Positions 1 to 8,956 of a stretch of 64,000 bases of DNA are shown one piece after another. A program made the position numbers and the translations under genes. Every line of letters starts with the position of its first letter. The first letter of the stretch is position 1. The stretch comes from an uncultured Phycisphaerales bacterium (GTDB lineage Bacteria > Planctomycetota > Phycisphaerae > Tepidisphaerales > Tepidisphaeraceae): NCBI GenBank assembly GCA_963844715.1, contig CAWJPJ010000006.1, forward strand, positions 32,001 through 96,000, written 5' to 3'. The notes under the pieces are model-generated. The model was not told the DNA's origin and did not search any database. It saw only the letters and a program-made list of their open reading frames with translations.

Positions 1-246
1 ATAACACCGAAACTAAGTCAAACTGGGCCGCTTGCGACTGGGCAATTTTGGATCAGCGGTGTCTTGTGGTTGGATGAGGCTGGAGAACGTGTTAGCTATG
101 CGGTTCCTCAGCAGCCAGAATTTAACTTGCCGGAACTCAATCGCGGTTTACGAACTATATTGGAAGAGCTTTGGGCTGAAATGGAAAAAATAGATGCTAA
201 CAAATTGAAGAAAGTTGGCCGCCGGTCAGCGTTGAGTTCTCCGTAA
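1..246 (+). CDS. 3' end of hypothetical protein running in from outside the window; possibly immunity gene of a preceding Rhs cassette
   Basis: Frame 1 is open from base 1 to TAA at 244-246; lower GC than core genes; CTGTAGC follows 9 bp later as at other cassette ends. Confidence 0.45.
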   Translation: MTPKLSQTGPLATGQFWISGVLWLDEAGERVSYAVPQQPEFNLPELNRGLRTILEELWAEMEKIDANKLKKVGRRSALSSP

Positions 247-546
247 CATCACCCCTGTAGCGTGCTATGCGCCTATCAGCCGCAAAAAAGCTACGAGCCG
301 ATTGGGCCGAGTCAACGCGGTACGCCCACCAGCTCATCGCGCAAAGATCGCGGCTGCCATCCCGCCTACCGCATGAATGATCCAAACGACAGATGCGGCA
401 ACAAGGAGGCCAATCACGAGTATCGCAATAGTCTTCCACCGGACCTTTTTGATATCTTTTTCCATCCACTTCATCTTTAACGGGCCGCTTGCTTCATCAA
501 GCCAGTCGTAACATTCTCCCCCGTCGTCCCTTCTATGAGCCGAGCC

Positions 547-872
547 GTGTCAAGTGTGTTGACGTTGCCAGGGAGCGAGTCGGTCGTTTTAACCTTCTAT
601 TCAGAGCTTCCGCGTCCGGCATGGCGGAAGGGCAAGCCCTCCGTTTGTGCCGGGAATCGCGGGCCTATTCAACTGTACAATGCGGCAGGATGCGGAGGGC
701 AAGCCCTCCGAATGCCCGCCAGCGCGACGCCCATTCTGTAGCGCGAGCTTTGCGAAGGGTTTTGCGCCTCCGATGGCTCAGGGACGACAACGGGCTGTCG
801 CTGATGACGACCGGCAAACTCCGCCAACGCAACATCATTGACCTTTCCTCTTTAGCTGCCTTCTTCCGATCA
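547..872 (-). ncRNA. Candidate bridge RNA / seekRNA of the IS1111-type element (exact ends unknown)
   Basis: Internal loop (726-799) carries two 9-mers matching the two flanks on opposite strands; two near-identical hairpins at 625-643 and 693-710 read G(CUUG)C on the minus strand. Confidence 0.7.
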
Positions 873-1950
873 TCACGCCGGCGTCGGCATTCCCGTCGCC
901 GCCGCGTGGTCTTTCCAATCGGTTCCGTCCGCAACATGGCCCACAGCTTGACCAGCAGCCTCCGGGCCACGGCGACGATGGCAATCTTCTTTCGCTTGTC
1001 GCTGCCGCGGCGGACGTTCTCATACACCTGCTTCATCCAGGTATTGGCACGCACGCCCAGCCAGGCGACCTCCACCAGCAATCCCCGCAGCAGGCGGTTG
1101 CCGGCGTGGCTGATGTGGCCCTGGCGATCGCTTTCGCCGCTCTGCCAGCGCCGTGGCGTCAGGCCCGAATAGCTGCTGACCTGCCGGGCACTCTTGAAAC
1201 GATGGGGATCGTCAATGATCGTGACCACCGCCTCGCTGAGGCGCGGGCCGACCCACGGGGCGGTCCTCAATTGCTTCACGCGCTGATCCGCCCTGGCCAG
1301 TTCCGCCAGCTTCAATTCCACCTGCCTGATCTGTTCTTCCAATCCCTCCAGCAGCTTGCAGTTCCACATGCAACTGGAAACAGCCACAACTGTTCCGCCG
1401 GCGCTGACGCATCCTGCGCCGCCTTGCTCCATTCGACGATTCCCGCCGCCGCCCAGGCTTTGTCACCGGCGGGCAGCTTCAAACCCTGGCGCTCGAAGAT
1501 GGCGCGGATGTTGTTCTTGATCATGGTTCTTCGGCCCACCAGGCCGTGGCGGTATTCGATAAACGACCGCCATTGCCTCACCTTCGTCGCCGGCACGTGG
1601 ACCGTCGGCAGGCATCCCATCTCCGACATCTGCGCCAGCTTCAGGGCATCGGTGCGGTCGGTCTTGTTCTTCACCAGCTTCCACTGCCAACGCTCGTCGT
1701 TGCCGTTGGCGACCTGGATCGGGATGCCCAGTGTTTCGGCTAGGTCGTGCACCCATCCTGCCGCCGGTCCCGCCTCAATCACCAGGCGATCGGGGGCGCG
1801 GTGGGTGAGCAAGTCGTGAATGGCAGCGGGATCAGTGGCCACCTTGCCGAACTCATGTTCGGCGGCTTTGCCTTCCATCGTGCCGTGATCGGTGATATAA
1901 TCCACAAAAACGCTCTTGTTCTTACCGAGATCGATAGCGAGAATCTTCAT
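873..1950 (-). CDS. IS110 DEDD transposase/recombinase, frameshifted near 1355-1380 and 925 (probable indel errors)
   Basis: ILAIDLGK, VIEAG, KNKTDRTDA, PWVGP, YSGLTPRRWQSG, GNRLLR, AIVAVARRLL motifs; GAAAGGA RBS before ATG 1950; one added G gives the ending MLRDGTDWKD..PA* at 873. Confidence 0.9.
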
Positions 1951-2074
1951 GGCCGAGTCCTTTCTCAAAGGATGACGTTTGAGCCGCCCCACGCGGGGTG
2001 AGCTCGTTAATAACCGGGGATTTTATGCTCCGTGTTCAACGTCCCGAGGAAGGCTCGGCTTCATAGTTTCTGTA

Positions 2075-2157
2075 GCTCCGTCGCGTCGGCGTCGGCCCTC
2101 GCCCGTGGAGCGCACGCGCCGGGGGCCGACGCTGATGCGATGGAGCGGAAGGGCGAC
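2075..2157. repeat. Long GC-rich imperfect palindrome (REP-like), insertion site of the IS110
   Basis: GCTCCGTCGCGTCGGCGTCGGCCC pairs with GGGCCGACGCTGATGCGATGGAGC; GAAGGGCGAC (2148-2157) pairs with GTCGTCCCTTC on the far side of the IS (523-533). Confidence 0.75.
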
Positions 2158-2259
2158 TCCCTGGTAGCTCCAGAGCGGAGCGCCGAGGTCCGGCTGTATC
2201 CTTCCACGTCCAGCCATGTCCAGCATCGCGCGGGTGCAACGCCGGCGTGCGCGCTGAAG

Positions 2260-2307
2260 CCCAACCCACTTCTTTTTTAGCTGCTGTAGCTGCCGCCGCC
2301 GTGTTCA
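2260..2307 (+). repeat. Junction repeat J1; other copies at 12071-12116 and partial at 462-479
   Basis: CCCAACCCACTTCTTTTTTAGCTGCTGTAGCTGC vs CCCAACCCACTTCATCTTTAGCCGCTGTAGCCGC vs CCATCCACTTCATCTTTA. Confidence 0.8.
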
Positions 2308-2319
2308 AGACGCGCGGAA

Positions 2320-2721
2320 TTATCCGGCTCTCTTGCCGGCGTGCTGCGCGGCCAGGGCGTCGATGAACTTCAACACGGCCTTTTGATCGTGGGCGGGGAA
2401 GCGCTCGAGCAATTGCATGCGCCGAAGCACGCGGCGGCTGACGCCGTTGCCGTTGGCTTTGTGGGATTGCGCCGGCGCGATGCCCAACAACTCATCGGCG
2501 CTGACGCCCAAAGCCTGGGCGAGTTGGCCGATCATCGCGGCGTGGGGCCTGACGCGGCCGCACTCATAGCTGGAGATAACGGCCTGGATCGTGCCGGCCT
2601 TCTCGGCCAGTTCGATCTGAGTGAAGCCGCGCTCTTTGCGCAGCCGCGCCATCCGCTGGCCGATGGTCTCGGCGTCGGTTCTGCTGCGCGTCGGGCTGTT
2701 GGCGATCCTGGGCATGGGCAC
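2320..2721 (-). CDS. XRE-family helix-turn-helix transcriptional regulator
   Basis: IGQRMARLRKERGFTQIELAEKAGTIQAVISSYECGRVRP...LAQALGVSADELLG. Confidence 0.92.
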   Translation of the reverse strand: MPMPRIANSPTRSRTDAETIGQRMARLRKERGFTQIELAEKAGTIQAVISSYECGRVRPHAAMIGQLAQALGVSADELLGIAPAQSHKANGNGVSRRVLRRMQLLERFPAHDQKAVLKFIDALAAQHAGKRAG

Positions 2722-2800
2722 AATTATACGGGCGACTGGGCGCGGGAGGGGTTGGGGACACCTTGCAAATACAATAGGACGTTGTAATACTGGCTACAAT

Positions 2801-4301
2801 GCGTATACCTATGACCTCGTCGGCAATCGAAAGTCGGACGTCCTAAGCGGAAGCGAGGACGGTACGGCCGGCACGACCACTTACTCATACAACAGCGATA
2901 ACGAACTGACCAGCCAAACCGTCGGTTCCACCACAACGACGTTCACGTTCGACAACAACGGCAGTCAATTGACCAGCACGACGGGAAGCAACGTCACAAC
3001 GAACACGTACAACGTTCGTAATGAACTAAACAGCGTTGCCACCGGCGGCTCGACCACCACCTATGTCTACAACGACGCAGGGAATCTTGTGCAGGAAACG
3101 ACGAGCGGGACGACGACTTACTATCTGGTCGATGACAACAATCCGACGGGGTATGCCAAGCCGATCGAGGTGCGGGTCGGGTCAGCGAGCGGCACGCCAA
3201 CCACGACGTACATCCTTGGTGACCGCGTCATCGGTCAGGCGAATAGCTCCGGCGCCGTGAGCTACTTGCTGACTGACGGCGAAGATAACACCCGCGCTCT
3301 CGTCAGCTCGTCGGGCACCATCACGGCTGCATACAACTACGATCCGTTCGGTGATCCGATTGGCTTTAGCCTCTCCACGGCCTCGACGCGGTTGCTGTTC
3401 CAGCAAACGATGTTCGATGCGCCGTCAGGGTTGAACATCTTCGGCGACGGTCAGCGCGAAGCAGAAGTCGGAGAGGACAACTTCATCGAGGCCGATTCCC
3501 CCGGATACAGCGACAACGTCGATCCATTAACGCTCAACGGATATCTATTGGACGGGGCCAATCCGATCAGCAACGTCGACCCCAGTGGGCACGATCTGAC
3601 CGACATTCTTGTGTCGTTAGGACTAAGCGAAACGATCGCATCGGCGACATCGGGATTCGCAATCAGAGCCGCTATTGGGGGAGCCACAAACGTCGCAATT
3701 CAATGGACATTGACGGCGACATTGACGCCCAACCAATATACCGTCCAGCAGGGCATCTATGATTTTTTAACAGGTGGACTAACGGCTGGCGCATCGAATG
3801 CTCTCATGGCACCACTCAAGTCCATCCTCGGTGGCCTCGGCTTGTCGGAAGCATTTCAGATCCTAGGCAGCGTGTCGGGAGGCTGGATTACTGCAGCAAT
3901 TGGTGACACTATTTCGTATGTTGGACGATCCGAACTATTTAGTCACGAGACACCCTCCGATAAAGAGATTGCCGAAGCCTTTGCATTCTCCCTTGTCGGC
4001 AACGCGATCGGAGGAACGGCAAGCAGCGCTATTCAGTCGCAATTTGCCGACAGCGCGAGAGGCAGCCCCAGAGCATGCTTTAACAGCGTACAATCAGTTT
4101 GAGGCCCGCATAAGCGGGAGCGGAAATGATTTTCTGGAGCTTGTATCTCAAGCTCTCGATCAGGGTTATCCTTATGCTCGGTCGCTGGGACTATATATTA
4201 TTGACAACGTGCAGCCAATTGCGAAGGCCATAGGTTATGGAGTCGAGGGTGCCGTCGATGCCGCGGCAGACTTGCTCAAGGAGGCAATCAACCAGCAATA
4301 G
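2801..4301 (+). pseudogene. Orphan Rhs cassette A: 5'-truncated YD-repeat core plus hydrophobic C-terminal toxin domain (frameshift ~4060)
   Basis: YTYDLVGNR, YDPFG, NPISNVDPSGHD cleavage motif, then Gly/Ala-rich tip; no credible start codon; tip continues in ORF 3900-4301. Confidence 0.85.
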
Positions 4302-4346
4302 CTGAACCCGGCCTGCCTATTTGATTTAAATCGAGCAGAGCTTCCC

Positions 4347-5030
4347 ATGCCGCAAGTATTCAAGATAAACAACTTTTCGACTGCGGATAGTTTAATCGTT
4401 GCCTCAACTGTCGTCGTAATGGCGCTCGGCTTCTTTTTCTCCGCTCGTACGCTGGTTAGGGCAATCGTTGATTTAATAAAGGAAAGAGCCCCAAAGGGGG
4501 CTTGGGAGTGGGCAGGAACTTTCCTCATACTTTGGTTCGTCTTAGTAGCAGTTGCGGCGAGGGCCGCGATTGCCGTCGCCGCGCGCGGTGGTGCGGGTGC
4601 CAGTTCGGGGATGGTCGGGGTCGGTGTGCCCTCTGCAAGTTCCGCGGCCGTGCGCACTTCCGCAGGGAAAAACCGGGCCGGCGGCTGGCTCGCCGTCTCG
4701 ATCATTATGGTTTTTCTGCTGCCCGCCTTATTTGTTCGGACCATCTTGTTTGAGCAGCCGCAACGTATGGCCGTCTCAAATTCCGGAATCGAATTACTTT
4801 ATCGGCTTCCCTGGCGCAACCTTTCGATCAATTGGTCTAACATTAGTGATATCCAACTCGATCGCAAAGAATATTACGTGCAAGGCATCACGAAAGCTCA
4901 CAATTACACGATCGTTATCGATCACGATGGAGCCGAGACTAGGATTGTGACCGATCCGTGGTATGAGGACCAAGTGAATGCCGCGTATCAAGCTGCGAAG
5001 GCGAAGTTAAAAGATTATAAAGGAGAATGA
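4347..5030 (+). CDS. Membrane protein, putative immunity for cassette A
   Basis: Directly after the toxin tip; about three hydrophobic segments then a beta-rich tail (LSINWSNISDIQL). Confidence 0.65.
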   Translation: MPQVFKINNFSTADSLIVASTVVVMALGFFFSARTLVRAIVDLIKERAPKGAWEWAGTFLILWFVLVAVAARAAIAVAARGGAGASSGMVGVGVPSASSAAVRTSAGKNRAGGWLAVSIIMVFLLPALFVRTILFEQPQRMAVSNSGIELLYRLPWRNLSINWSNISDIQLDRKEYYVQGITKAHNYTIVIDHDGAETRIVTDPWYEDQVNAAYQAAKAKLKDYKGE

Positions 5031-5060
5031 AAAAGTCATGTGGCTAGTTGCCGACGCGCC

Positions 5061-8000
5061 TTTAACCCCGACGGCACCGTACAGAGCGCGACGGATGCGG
5101 ATGGCCTGACCACCGCTTACACCTATTATCCCAACGGCCAGCAGGAAACCGTGACGCAAGAATCTGTGTCGGTTTACAATGCAACCACGAGTACGACCAG
5201 CGACTTCAACAATTACGGCGTTCCCGCCGGGCTCTTGATCAGCGAGTCCAGCCTCGGGCCCACCGGCCAGATGGTGCAGCAGTCGTACAACTCCTACTAT
5301 GGCAATGATGTCGCCGCCTCCAGCCCCAGCTACGTGGCGGCCATTCCTTCCGGCAGCTTCGACGTGGCCGGCGAACTGGCCGGCACCACGGACGTCAGCG
5401 GCGTCACCCACTCTTACAATTATGACGCCGATGGGAATCAGATCAGCGACAGCTATGTCTGGCACGATCCTTCCGCTCCCAACGACCCCTCGCAGGACGA
5501 AATCGTCACCACCACAACCGTCTACGACGCCGCCGGGCGGGTCATTTCCACGACCACCGGTACGGTCACCACTTTGAACAACGCGACCCTTGTGTCGGGC
5601 GTCACCACCAGCACCGATTACAACGCCGCGGGCCAGGTGGAATCGACCACCGATGAATACGGCCAGGTCACCCAATACGTCTACGACGCCGACGGCAACC
5701 TCATCCAAACCCTCTATCCCGACAACACCAGCACGGAAACCATCTACGATTCGGAAGGCAGAGCGATCCTGACCACCGATCGGCATGTCGTGGGCGACTC
5801 CGGGAATGCCACACTCACTGTTTATAACAGCCTGGGCCAGGTTGCCGAGACCCAGCGCGTCGCCGACGTCGCCGCAACCGTCGGCGCGGTATCCGGAATG
5901 ACTGGTGTGGACCAGGTCACGGCGGTCAGCGGCGCCGGCCTCACTTCCACGGAAACCGGCGGGATTTACGTCTGGGCCGTGAACCCGACTTTCACCGGCT
6001 GGTTCTCGCAGACCAGCACCACCTATAACCCCGACGGCACGGTCGCCAGCACCACGGATGCGGACGGCCTGACCACGGACTACACCTATTATCCCAACGG
6101 CCAGCAGGAAAGCGTCACGCAGGTGAGCGTTCCGGTGTATGGCGCGACTGGCGGCGTCGAAAACCTCACCACGACCTACCAGTACAACTCCATGGGCCAG
6201 CAGAGCGACGTGACCGATCCCCTCGGCAACACGACCTCGTATGAATATGATCCCCTCGGCCGGCTGATCTCCACCGGCTACGCCCCGGCGGTCAGCGTGG
6301 GGTCCACCTCCCTCGTCTCGACCACGACCAGCGAAACCTACGATCCGGCGGGGAATAAGATCACCGAGACGGATCAGCTTGGCCGGGTCACGCAGTATAA
6401 GTATGACGATGCCGGCGATCTGATTGAAGTGGATCAGCCGGAGGTTTTGAACCCGGCCACCAATACGATGACCCCGCCGACGACGAGTTACGTCTACGAT
6501 CAGTACGGCGACGAGTTGATGCAGATCGACGCCAACGAACAGGCGGCGTATCAGGCCTGGATCAGCGCCGGCAACACGCCGGAAAGCTTCGCCGGCCCGG
6601 CCACGCGGTATACCTACAATGCCCTCGGCCAGGAAACCTCGGAAACGCTCCCCGACGGCGAGCAGGAAACGACCCAGTACGATCAATTCGGGCGTGTTTC
6701 CTACTCCGTCGACTTCGACGGGAACGTGACGGCTTACACCTACGACGACTCCGCCACCGGCGACGGCCGCGTGACGGGAGAATATTTCTTCCTCCCCGGT
6801 GTCGTGTTCGAAAGCAACAGCGGCGCCGTCATCACGACGAACGCGTCGGAGAGCACAACTTACACTTACACCTTGCTCGGGCAGCAGGAGAGCGTGACCG
6901 ACTCGAGTCCCACCGGCGCCTATACCGCCGATGGCGCGACGACTTACACATACGACGCCAGTGGTAACGTGATTGAGGAAAACACGCCGGAAGGGATTAT
7001 CAATTATTATTACAATGCCCTGAACCAGCAGACGGACATGTGGACGGGGAACGTCACGTATGCCAATCGCGACACCGCCGAGACGTGGACGCAATATGGC
7101 TACGATTCCCTCGGCCGCCTGACCACAGTGACCCAAAGCCGCCTCAATGACCAAACCGTGAATCTGGTGACCACCTACGCCTACGACGCCAACGGCAACA
7201 AAGCCTACGAAATGGACCCTAATGGGGACATCACCACGTATGTATATGATGCACAGAATCGCCTCACCGGCGAGTTGGTCAAGAATGGCAGCACGACGCT
7301 TTATAGCGTGACATACACGCTGAATAAGGACGGCACCCGCGCCAGCGCAACGGAGATGAACGGGTCGACTTCGATCAGCACCAGTTGGACCTACGACAAC
7401 CTCGACCGCCTGCTCGCCGAAACGATCGTCAGCGGCGGCACTTCAACCGATACCTATACCTACGATCTGGTCGGCAACATCGTCACCAAGAACCACGTCG
7501 TCGACGGCTCCGGGGCCGAAACAACGACGTATCACTACAACGGTGACAATGAACTTTACCAGCAGGTGGACAGCGTCACCGGTACGACCAACTTCACCTA
7601 CGACGCGAACGGAGACCAGACCGGCAGCACAGCGAGCACCACGATCACGACCTACACGTATGACCTCGAGAACAAGATGATCTCCGAAGCCGTCAACGGC
7701 GCGACGCAGGCGAGCTACATTTATGACGAGGCAGGCAACAGGGTTCAGGAGACCGTCGGCAGCACGACCAGTTACTACCTGACCGACGACGATAATCCGA
7801 CGGGTTATGCCGAGCCGTTGGAGGTCAGAACCTACACCGGCTCAACCCCATCCCTTGGTGCCGCGTCGCTGTCGATGACGTATCTGATTGGGGACAACGT
7901 TTTCGGGCAGGTGAACTCTTCCGGGACGGCCAGTTACTTCGTCATCGACGGCCACGGCAGCACCCGCGCTCTGGTCAGTTCTACAGGCTCGGTAACCGCC

Positions 8001-8956
8001 ACATTCAACTACTTTGCCTATGGCAACCCTTTGGGCTCCTGGAGCCTGAACACCGCCGGCACGATCTTTCTCTATGGCGGCGACGCCGTGTACGACCCCG
8101 CCAGCGGGCTGTACATGAACGGCGACGGCACGCGGGATCGGTCTGGGTTTGAGTTTATTCAGAGGGATACGAGCCTTGGGGAAAACGCGGATCCGCTTAG
8201 CCTCCACACGTATTTGTACGCGGATGCGGACTCGATCAACGGGTTTGATCCAAGCGGGCACGATGATCTCGATGATATCGAGAATTTTATTGGCAACTTT
8301 GCCATCGCGGCTTTCCAGTCTTCGACACCGTACATGCTATTGCATTACACCTATGAGAGTAATTTCATGCCGAATTGGAATAATGCCGTCGGCGATGTCA
8401 TGCATGGATTTGCTAGCATTGGGTTATCATTTCCCAGCGGGTCCGCGTCGGCGATCGCCGCTCAGATCTATCAAGGGTTGCAGAACTTTAACTATTTGCG
8501 CCAAATATCGCTTCGGTCAGTGTTTCGGGGGGTAAGCTTGCTTCCTTTACTATGAATGGACTACTGATGCAATACGGGATGTCGCGATTTAATGCTGCTA
8601 ATCCCACCGTGCAGCTGGTGCAGGGACCCGGCCAATACGAGCTCACAGGCGTGACTCTTGGGAGTCATATGCTCGTAGGCGTCCGTCGGTGGAGAGTGCT
8701 GATAATTCGGCAGTCGCCGCCGGTGCTTTCCGTCGAAACGGAGGCATATGAGCAGAACAGTAGCTATGCAAATGCGGCCGGCCGTTGGGCTCTCGGGCAA
8801 TCGGCACAATACGCGGTCTGGGACAACTATTTGAACAATATCGGGGCGGCTTGGGTTACAAAGGGTGCCACATTAACGCCTGCAAGGCATATCCCTGAAG
8901 TAGACGTCGGCGCTGTAAATCCGTGGAGGGCGCAGTTGCCGCTTACGCTACAGTAG
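5061..8956 (+). pseudogene. Orphan Rhs cassette B: long 5'-truncated YD-repeat region plus C-terminal domain (frameshift ~8500-8550)
   Basis: Many YD repeats (YDAAGR, YDPLGR, YDSLGR); DSINGFDPSGHD; tip apparently continues in ORF 8552-8956. Confidence 0.85.

Follow-up and report, generated by a model that had tools for sequence, protein, structure and literature searches.

The window, by which we mean the whole stretch of 64,000 nucleotides that was analysed, carries on its minus strand an insertion sequence of 1,540 bp, which is a member of the IS110 family and of the IS1111 type (Table 1). The two halves of the minus-strand open reading frame match PF01548 and PF02371 above cutoff, and the 358-residue protein of an intact second copy in the genome (copy B, gene at C6:10289-11365) passes the NCBIfam model NF033542 with 205.7 bits against a cutoff of 140, bearing out the IS110-family transposase proposed in a preliminary description of this DNA. 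An alignment of 30 proteins revealed D7, E59, D98, D101 and S270 to be invariant; with the roles of these residues assigned by analogy to IS621, the predicted protein is an IS110-family recombinase with an N-terminal DEDD RuvC-like domain and a C-terminal catalytic-serine domain. Near 1382, 1359 and 929, where the gene in the window departs from that of copy B by single-base indels, contigs from all four of the runs X1-X4 have the copy-B form, and the same contigs also carry copy-B substitutions. The indels in the window may represent either real decay or assembly errors.

In the orientation of the gene, the element reads from a core AG through AAACT to a repeat beginning with ATG, and closes with a repeat ending in CAT, followed by AGA and a second core AG. 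The inverted repeats, 13 and 12 bp long with one indel between them, are within the range of about 11-13 bp typical of the IS1111 group. They lie inside terminal extensions of 7 bp on the left (AGAAACT) and 3 bp on the right (AGA), the ends being fixed by the empty site described below; such 7-bp and 3-bp extensions outside a subterminal inverted repeat are given as the IS1111 convention in the part of the seekRNA study considered here (PMC11187229). The left end spans 122 bp and the right end about 340 bp, so that a long non-coding region follows the gene, as it does in the IS1111 group. In these features the architecture is that of an IS1111 element.

The genome has three copies, namely that in the window (copy A), copy B (C6:9944-11520) and copy C (C6:535682-536962, L003), which has two single-base deletions and is truncated soon after the gene, lacking the guide RNA region and the right end. 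Copies A and B are identical in the non-coding region. All three adjoin the same flank in one orientation and precise empty alleles exist, pointing to site- and orientation-specific insertion at a short shared core with no target duplication. Three more distant IS110 genes of 34-38% identity are also present (C6:17723-18821, C7:950831-951786 and C7:955190-956026), two of them split into two frames. A search of window positions 1-3000 against Rfam returned one chance match alone (E 0.37, inside the gene), and no relative was found in the viral contigs searched. The transposase is 25-28% identical to those of IS5075, IS4321 and IS5708. In quick trees, from which IS621, ISEc21 and IS1111 itself were absent, it belongs to a clade of its own (100% SH-aLRT) outside the tight IS5075/IS4321 clade (100%), and a topology joining both was not rejected (p-AU 0.26). 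The IS1111 membership of IS5075 and IS4321 was taken from a reference title, the other members of their clade being grouped by the tree.

Table 1. Features of the element and its insertion site, in window coordinates
Feature	Position	Strand	Remarks
Left target half GTCGTCC (target positions 1-7, + strand as top)	523..529	+	
2-bp core CT, left copy	530..531	+	joint 529->2070 with 2 shared letters
Whole element including one core copy	532..2071	-	1,540-base skip in contig; boundaries common with copy B
Right end: 3-bp terminal extension (532-534) and 12-bp subterminal inverted repeat (535-546)	532..546	-	
TTGACA, predicted -35 box of circle-junction promoter	548..553	-	putative function
Predicted donor-loop handshake bases GU	592..593	-	first base matches target position 7; 35/55 vs 23.3 expected
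Predicted right donor guide AUAGAAG (5 nt of right end + core)	594..600	-	exact in 54/55 clusters
Predicted donor-loop stem (658-667 with 601-614) closing variable hairpin	601..667	-	helices 3, 4
Predicted short left donor guide AGUU (donor positions 3-6)	671..674	-	
Extra hairpin between the two loops	682..719	-	absent in 49 other aligned elements
Outer stem of target loop, 3' arm	724..733	-	helix 1
Predicted target-loop handshake bases AA	734..735	-	match element left end 2068-2069, not target
Predicted right target guide GCUACAG (5 nt + core)	736..742	-	4.50/5 own vs 1.55 other
Inner stem (776-779 with 745-748) and apical hairpin	745..779	-	helix 2
Predicted left target guide GUCGUCCCU (7 nt + core)	780..788	-	5.88/7 own vs 2.81 other
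Outer stem of target loop, 5' arm	791..801	-	helix 1
IS110-family DEDD/serine recombinase gene	873..1950	-	single-base indels near 1382, 1359, 929 vs intact copy B
Left end: 13-bp subterminal inverted repeat (2052-2064) and 7-bp extension (2065-2071; core copy 2070-2071)	2052..2071	-	
Right target half GTAGC (target positions 10-14); start of conserved non-coding stretch beside HTH gene	2072..2076	+	

The insertion site can be delimited from its unoccupied forms. The 14-mer GTCGTCCCTGTAGC (GTCGTCC-CT-GTAGC) is found once in the genome, exact and empty, at C6:23557, and is followed by the same downstream flank. In run X4, a contig at depth 4.4 passes directly from 529 to 2070, skipping 1,540 bases and sharing 2 letters, and run X3 has the same empty allele at the window locus in the form of a loose end. 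The reverse situation is also encountered: one contig of run X4 (depth 3.4) has the element end directly beside the flank of the site found unoccupied in the genome (C6:23557), and run X1 has another filled site, with 6 of the 7 left bases matching. The runs come from one study, perhaps the source of the assembly, and these alleles are hence evidence of polymorphism rather than of independent occurrence. Near-perfect empty sites were further detected in G034, G001 and G004 (G004 unpublished). Among the relatives collected below, the two sides of the element have an equal 2-nt core in 90 of 160 loci, and no further base is shared 3' of this core in 49 of 55 element clusters. A 4-bp AGAA core, which we had considered, was rejected on the empty site in the genome, the X4 joint and those 49 clusters. 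In a side branch (L067, L134, L135, L136, L174) the junction dinucleotides are unequal, with AG on the left and CG or CA on the right, and the RNA of L067, L136 and L174 has ATAGTCG, a match to the right end.

The preliminary description had drawn attention to an internal loop in the region downstream of the gene, whose strands it took for target guides of a bridge or seekRNA. All the strings that it quoted are at the places given for them: GACGCCC (726-732), which pairs with GGGCTGTC (792-799) with one bulged base, GAGC (745-748), GCTC (776-779) and TTCTAT (595-600). Its proposals that the RNA would lie downstream of the gene and that the loop strands would serve as target guides on opposite strands are upheld, and the guide role is strongly supported by the comparisons below. 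The strand AGGGACGAC (780-788) is the reverse complement of 523-531 and constitutes a predicted guide of 9 nt, that is 7 nt plus the core. The other strand, TTCTGTAGC, does occur at both 734-742 and 2068-2076, but 2068-2069 (TT) belongs to the element and not to the flank, leaving a predicted 7-nt guide of the core plus 5 nt, followed in the RNA by two bases that match the element end. No extension of this 7-nt guide past the 5 flank bases was detected. Across the 55 clusters, the counterpart of 734-735 agrees with the donor end in 46 and with the target in 4, and these putative handshake bases are nearly constant (AA/AA in 44 of 55), with a matched change in 2 clusters and with AA or GA kept in 4 clusters that have a TA donor. 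On folding the minus strand as had been proposed, the single-sequence minimum-energy structure pairs the guides in part and does not open the loop (z -2.29); the alignment consensus does open it.

To collect relatives, the 30-protein alignment was used as a query, and 80 of 489 metagenome loci and 78 of 137 genome loci were fetched, mostly from Planctomycetota where named. Together with the window and copy B these make up the 160 loci examined, of which 70 were dropped on account of ends beyond the fetched DNA, truncation, an unequal core or an unusual extension; the 90 with both ends and an equal core fall into 55 clusters. Fifty of these were aligned, leaving out the distant L082, L146, L154 and L161 and the mis-anchored L143. 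Regions were cut out using each element's own target and a scaffold word as anchors, and the scored columns were taken from the alignment. In a fixed-column test on these 50 elements with 48 distinct targets, which counts non-core matches and slides the left register equally for all pairs, the left guide matched its own target at 5.88 of 7 positions as against 2.81 for other targets, and the right guide at 4.50 of 5 as against 1.55 (0 of 50,000 permutations). An anchor-free test, using both guide words over the whole non-coding region of the 55 clusters, gave 14.3 of 16 for the own target versus 11.4 for others (0 of 100,000 permutations). In 23 of 55 clusters no other target scored as high as the own one, a number kept down in part by several clusters having near-identical targets. 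It should be noted that the relatives are not independent and the permutation values consequently overstate significance; the effect is large nonetheless. The expected covariation of guide and target is thus seen in both guides, and the result that had been named as adverse, homologues at different targets keeping the same 9-mers in the loop, was not observed: relatives at other targets carry other guides, and neither guide of the window element recurs in any other of the 50.

The scaffold around the guides, including the stems quoted in the preliminary description, is conserved by compensatory change, with 90.2% of cells paired, two-sided changes in 17 of 20 pairs and slid controls at 32-44%. 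This alignment was also the source of the structure so tested, to which 5 pairs were added by hand. There is accordingly, as in IS621-type RNAs, a predicted target-binding internal loop with two guides that covary with the target. In all 50 aligned elements, as in the window where 780-788 precedes 736-742 on the minus strand, the top-strand match comes before the bottom-strand match, which is the order of the IS1111 group. In many relatives (L004, L008, L013, L016, L036, L046, L122 and others) the target lies in short tandem-like repeats, such as units of CGCCAAG or CACAGAG flanking the core on both sides; these are likely planctomycete intergenic repeats. In two clusters of 14 copies each, variation is found in the outer bases that the left guide reads and none in the 5 bases matched to the right guide; copy B, with the same RNA and a left flank matching at 2 of 7 bases, fits this pattern, and half-match insertion has been reported for IS621 in the part of a preprint considered here (10.64898/2026.08.31.748434). 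The left flank of copy B (L001), CATCACC-CT, equals the empty site of G034 (L164), CATCACC-ATCGTCC-CT, minus 7 bases, so that an imprecise event or subsequent deletion may lie behind it instead of simple tolerance of mismatches.

Between the target loop and the right end of the element we noted a second predicted loop facing the element's own junction. This donor loop had been called weakly visible, and is clearer than that, having a 7-nt right guide, a short left guide and a base that tracks the target. The right donor guide, exact in all clusters save one, follows the changed donor ends in 5 of the 6 clusters that have them (by best-match search), so that, as in IS621-type RNAs, donor-loop bases covary with the predicted circle junction. 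The left donor guide spans about 4 nt, and at donor positions 4-6 it gives 131 of 150 matches versus 117.5 when permuted; among 9 elements with other donor ends the own donor was favoured in 7, with one tie and one failure. TAGGC, which follows it, was considered as a further piece of donor guide and rejected, since covariation identifies it as stem. The base that follows the right donor guide agrees with target position 7 more often than expected (0 of 100,000 permutations), and the next base equals target position 6 in 25 of 55 clusters (16.1 expected, p 0.004). The first of these two putative handshake bases is G in 41 of 55 clusters, in 14 of which it is mismatched. Helices 3 and 4 of the donor-loop stem have 93-97% of cells paired, with two-sided changes. 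A 14-bp word occurs twice, at 629-642 and 696-709, in two hairpins. Beyond the loop, every one of the 55 clusters has TTGAC, and in 40 of them it stands 17 bp away from the last base of the core. The -10 element was judged against the sigma-70 consensus, and the match across the predicted circle junction is weak. No circle junction was found among the contigs of runs X1-X4, a kind of data that drops rare forms. The 18 sequencing runs listed included none of RNA, a result that is neutral as to expression.

Element ends, a 2-bp core, an empty 14-bp site and four guide-like segments that covary with targets and ends can thus be read directly from the sequences. We favour, at a probability of roughly 85%, the interpretation that the downstream non-coding region encodes a two-loop bridge or seek RNA, which would guide the element's own recombinase to the 14-bp site GTCGTCC-CT-GTAGC. 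The originally suggested pair of 9-nt guides reading a target of about 17 bp, GTCGTCCCTTCTGTAGC, has in its favour that both 9-mers match the junctions letter for letter. However, the empty site is 14 bp long both in the genome and in run X4, 49 of 55 clusters have a core of 2 nt, the rebuilt 17-mer has no match in the genome with fewer than three mismatches, and the AA that it counts as guide hardly varies between elements inserted at different targets and is identical to the element end; the empty alleles refute this reading, to which we give practically no credence. That the matches in the loop are passive copies of the flanks or chance resemblances, with no guiding role, is very improbable, although the case for guiding is built on sequence comparison. 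Sequences resampled from the non-coding region 547-872 under a first-order Markov model contain the 9-mer and the 7-mer together in only 5 of 200,000 cases, so that the double match is not due to chance. The matches, placed on opposite strands at fixed positions of a scaffold that covaries, also differ in step with the target among the 50 aligned elements.

A simpler RNA, by contrast, has several points that speak for it. A seekRNA of about 80 nt (724-801) might read the target alone, with the protein recognizing the ends through the inverted repeats and the matches in the donor loop being dispensable. In the part of Siddiquee et al. considered here, an 82-nt ISEc11 seekRNA was enough and worked best (PMC11187229); the inverted repeats of the present element are long, its left donor guide is weak, and an extra hairpin separates its two loops. 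Yet 54 of 55 clusters retain the right donor guide, which changes along with the ends where these differ, the donor-loop stems covary, and the base after the right donor guide tracks the target, which requires the donor loop to be in the complex. We regard a purely target-reading RNA as unlikely and the two-loop bridge RNA as the better account of these patterns.

If the two-loop RNA operates as work on IS621 and ISEc11 suggests, the element would form a circle whose junction, ATAGTTT-CT-TCTAT, would be the donor and would create a promoter for both the gene and the RNA. Top strands would be exchanged at the CT core, after which the 2 bases following each right guide would pair with the incoming partner in a handshake. 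The broken gene in the window would depend on the intact copy B acting in trans; if the indels are assembly errors, no such help would be required.

Within the portions of Siddiquee et al. 2024 considered here (PMC11187229), the IS1111-family seekRNA elements ISEc11, ISKpn4, ISPa11 and ISPst6 share with the present element the subterminal inverted repeats with 7- and 3-bp extensions, the long downstream non-coding region, the top-strand match 5' of the bottom-strand match in the transposase orientation, a G-L-x-P...SG motif and natural reprogramming between relatives. They differ in having transposases of 330-350 residues compared to 358 here, and those portions describe target matches alone, whereas donor guides and putative handshake bases are visible here. 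With IS621, as presented in the parts considered of Durrant et al. 2024 (PMC11208160) and Hiraizumi et al. 2024 (PMC11208158), the predicted RNA shares two loops with four guides, each with the CT core, a 9-nt left target guide, a core that takes up positions 8-9 of 14, and the DEDD and serine active site; the two bases that follow each right guide, which are handshake bases in IS621, are candidates for that role here. In IS621, as far as those parts go, the RNA lies upstream of the gene and not downstream, the geometry is not on the strand opposite the gene as it is here, the wild-type right target guide pairs 4 nt and not 7, and the long inverted repeats seen here are a further difference; the match between the proteins is weak (E 3.7e-12, C-terminal part alone). 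When the strand that does not encode the transposase is taken as top, the predicted layout is the 7+2+5 arrangement of IS621, with the left guide on positions 1-9 and the right guide on 8-14. By our inference, the "reversed order" described for IS1111 seekRNAs is this IS621 arrangement seen from the opposite strand.

An identical order of the four segments was recovered, by best-match search with no null control, in IS5075, IS4321 and two elements grouping with them, which are plasmid elements. These resemble the window element in their ends (ATG...CAT-AGA), in the 7/3 extensions, in the scaffold word before the right donor guide and in a target within another mobile-looking element, but have another target and host, one core base common to both sides and a distant transposase. 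In the part of Durrant et al. considered here, bridge RNAs are predicted in 93% of IS1111 elements, often with the donor-binding bases in a multiloop, and donor guides are drawn for some of them (PMC11208160), so that the surprise is modest. It is well supported that the present element is a new example of a type of RNA-guided system known since 2024, and not a new mechanism.

The target lies at the edge of a conserved non-coding stretch that is found four times in the genome, each time beside an HTH gene. This stretch of about 95 bp (window 2072-2170; L162-L166, L169) begins at the target, has an internal inverted repeat and is matched in 5 of 60 relatives; it is possibly an end or recombination site of a toxin module. 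At copy B the target falls between an Rhs/SMI1-KNR4 pair and an HTH/CHC2-primase module. The region C6:1-45000, which includes window 1-8600, has a repeated module comprising an Rhs-repeat gene, an SMI1/KNR4-type immunity gene, the non-coding stretch with the target and an HTH gene, continuing with a CHC2 zinc-finger primase and then large ORFs that by eye resemble an ATPase and a tyrosine recombinase. Many ORFs in the copies of this module are broken, at differing places in each copy, and the region looks like a tandemly repeated mobile toxin element. With its target at the edge of the repeated stretch, the insertion sequence appears to target a mobile-looking toxin module while leaving the genes unbroken.

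These results add about 50 natural pairs of guide and target from a lineage outside the enterobacterial models of IS1111, and they fix an exact substrate for a test, namely the 14-bp target, the CT core, the 14-bp donor junction and an intact copy of the gene. They bear on the question whether IS1111-type RNAs have an IS621-like donor loop and handshake pairing or a target-seeking loop alone. On balance, with odds somewhat better than even, we see here a deep-branching, Planctomycetota-rich lineage of IS1111 type, with four-guide handshake bridge RNAs and a fully paired 14-bp target, that has been naturally reprogrammed to at least 48 sites on a near-constant donor. Should this be true, the intact copy B would be a ready candidate for a tool, and the "reversed guide order" would be the IS621 7+2+5 arrangement on the opposite strand, giving one mechanism for both groups.
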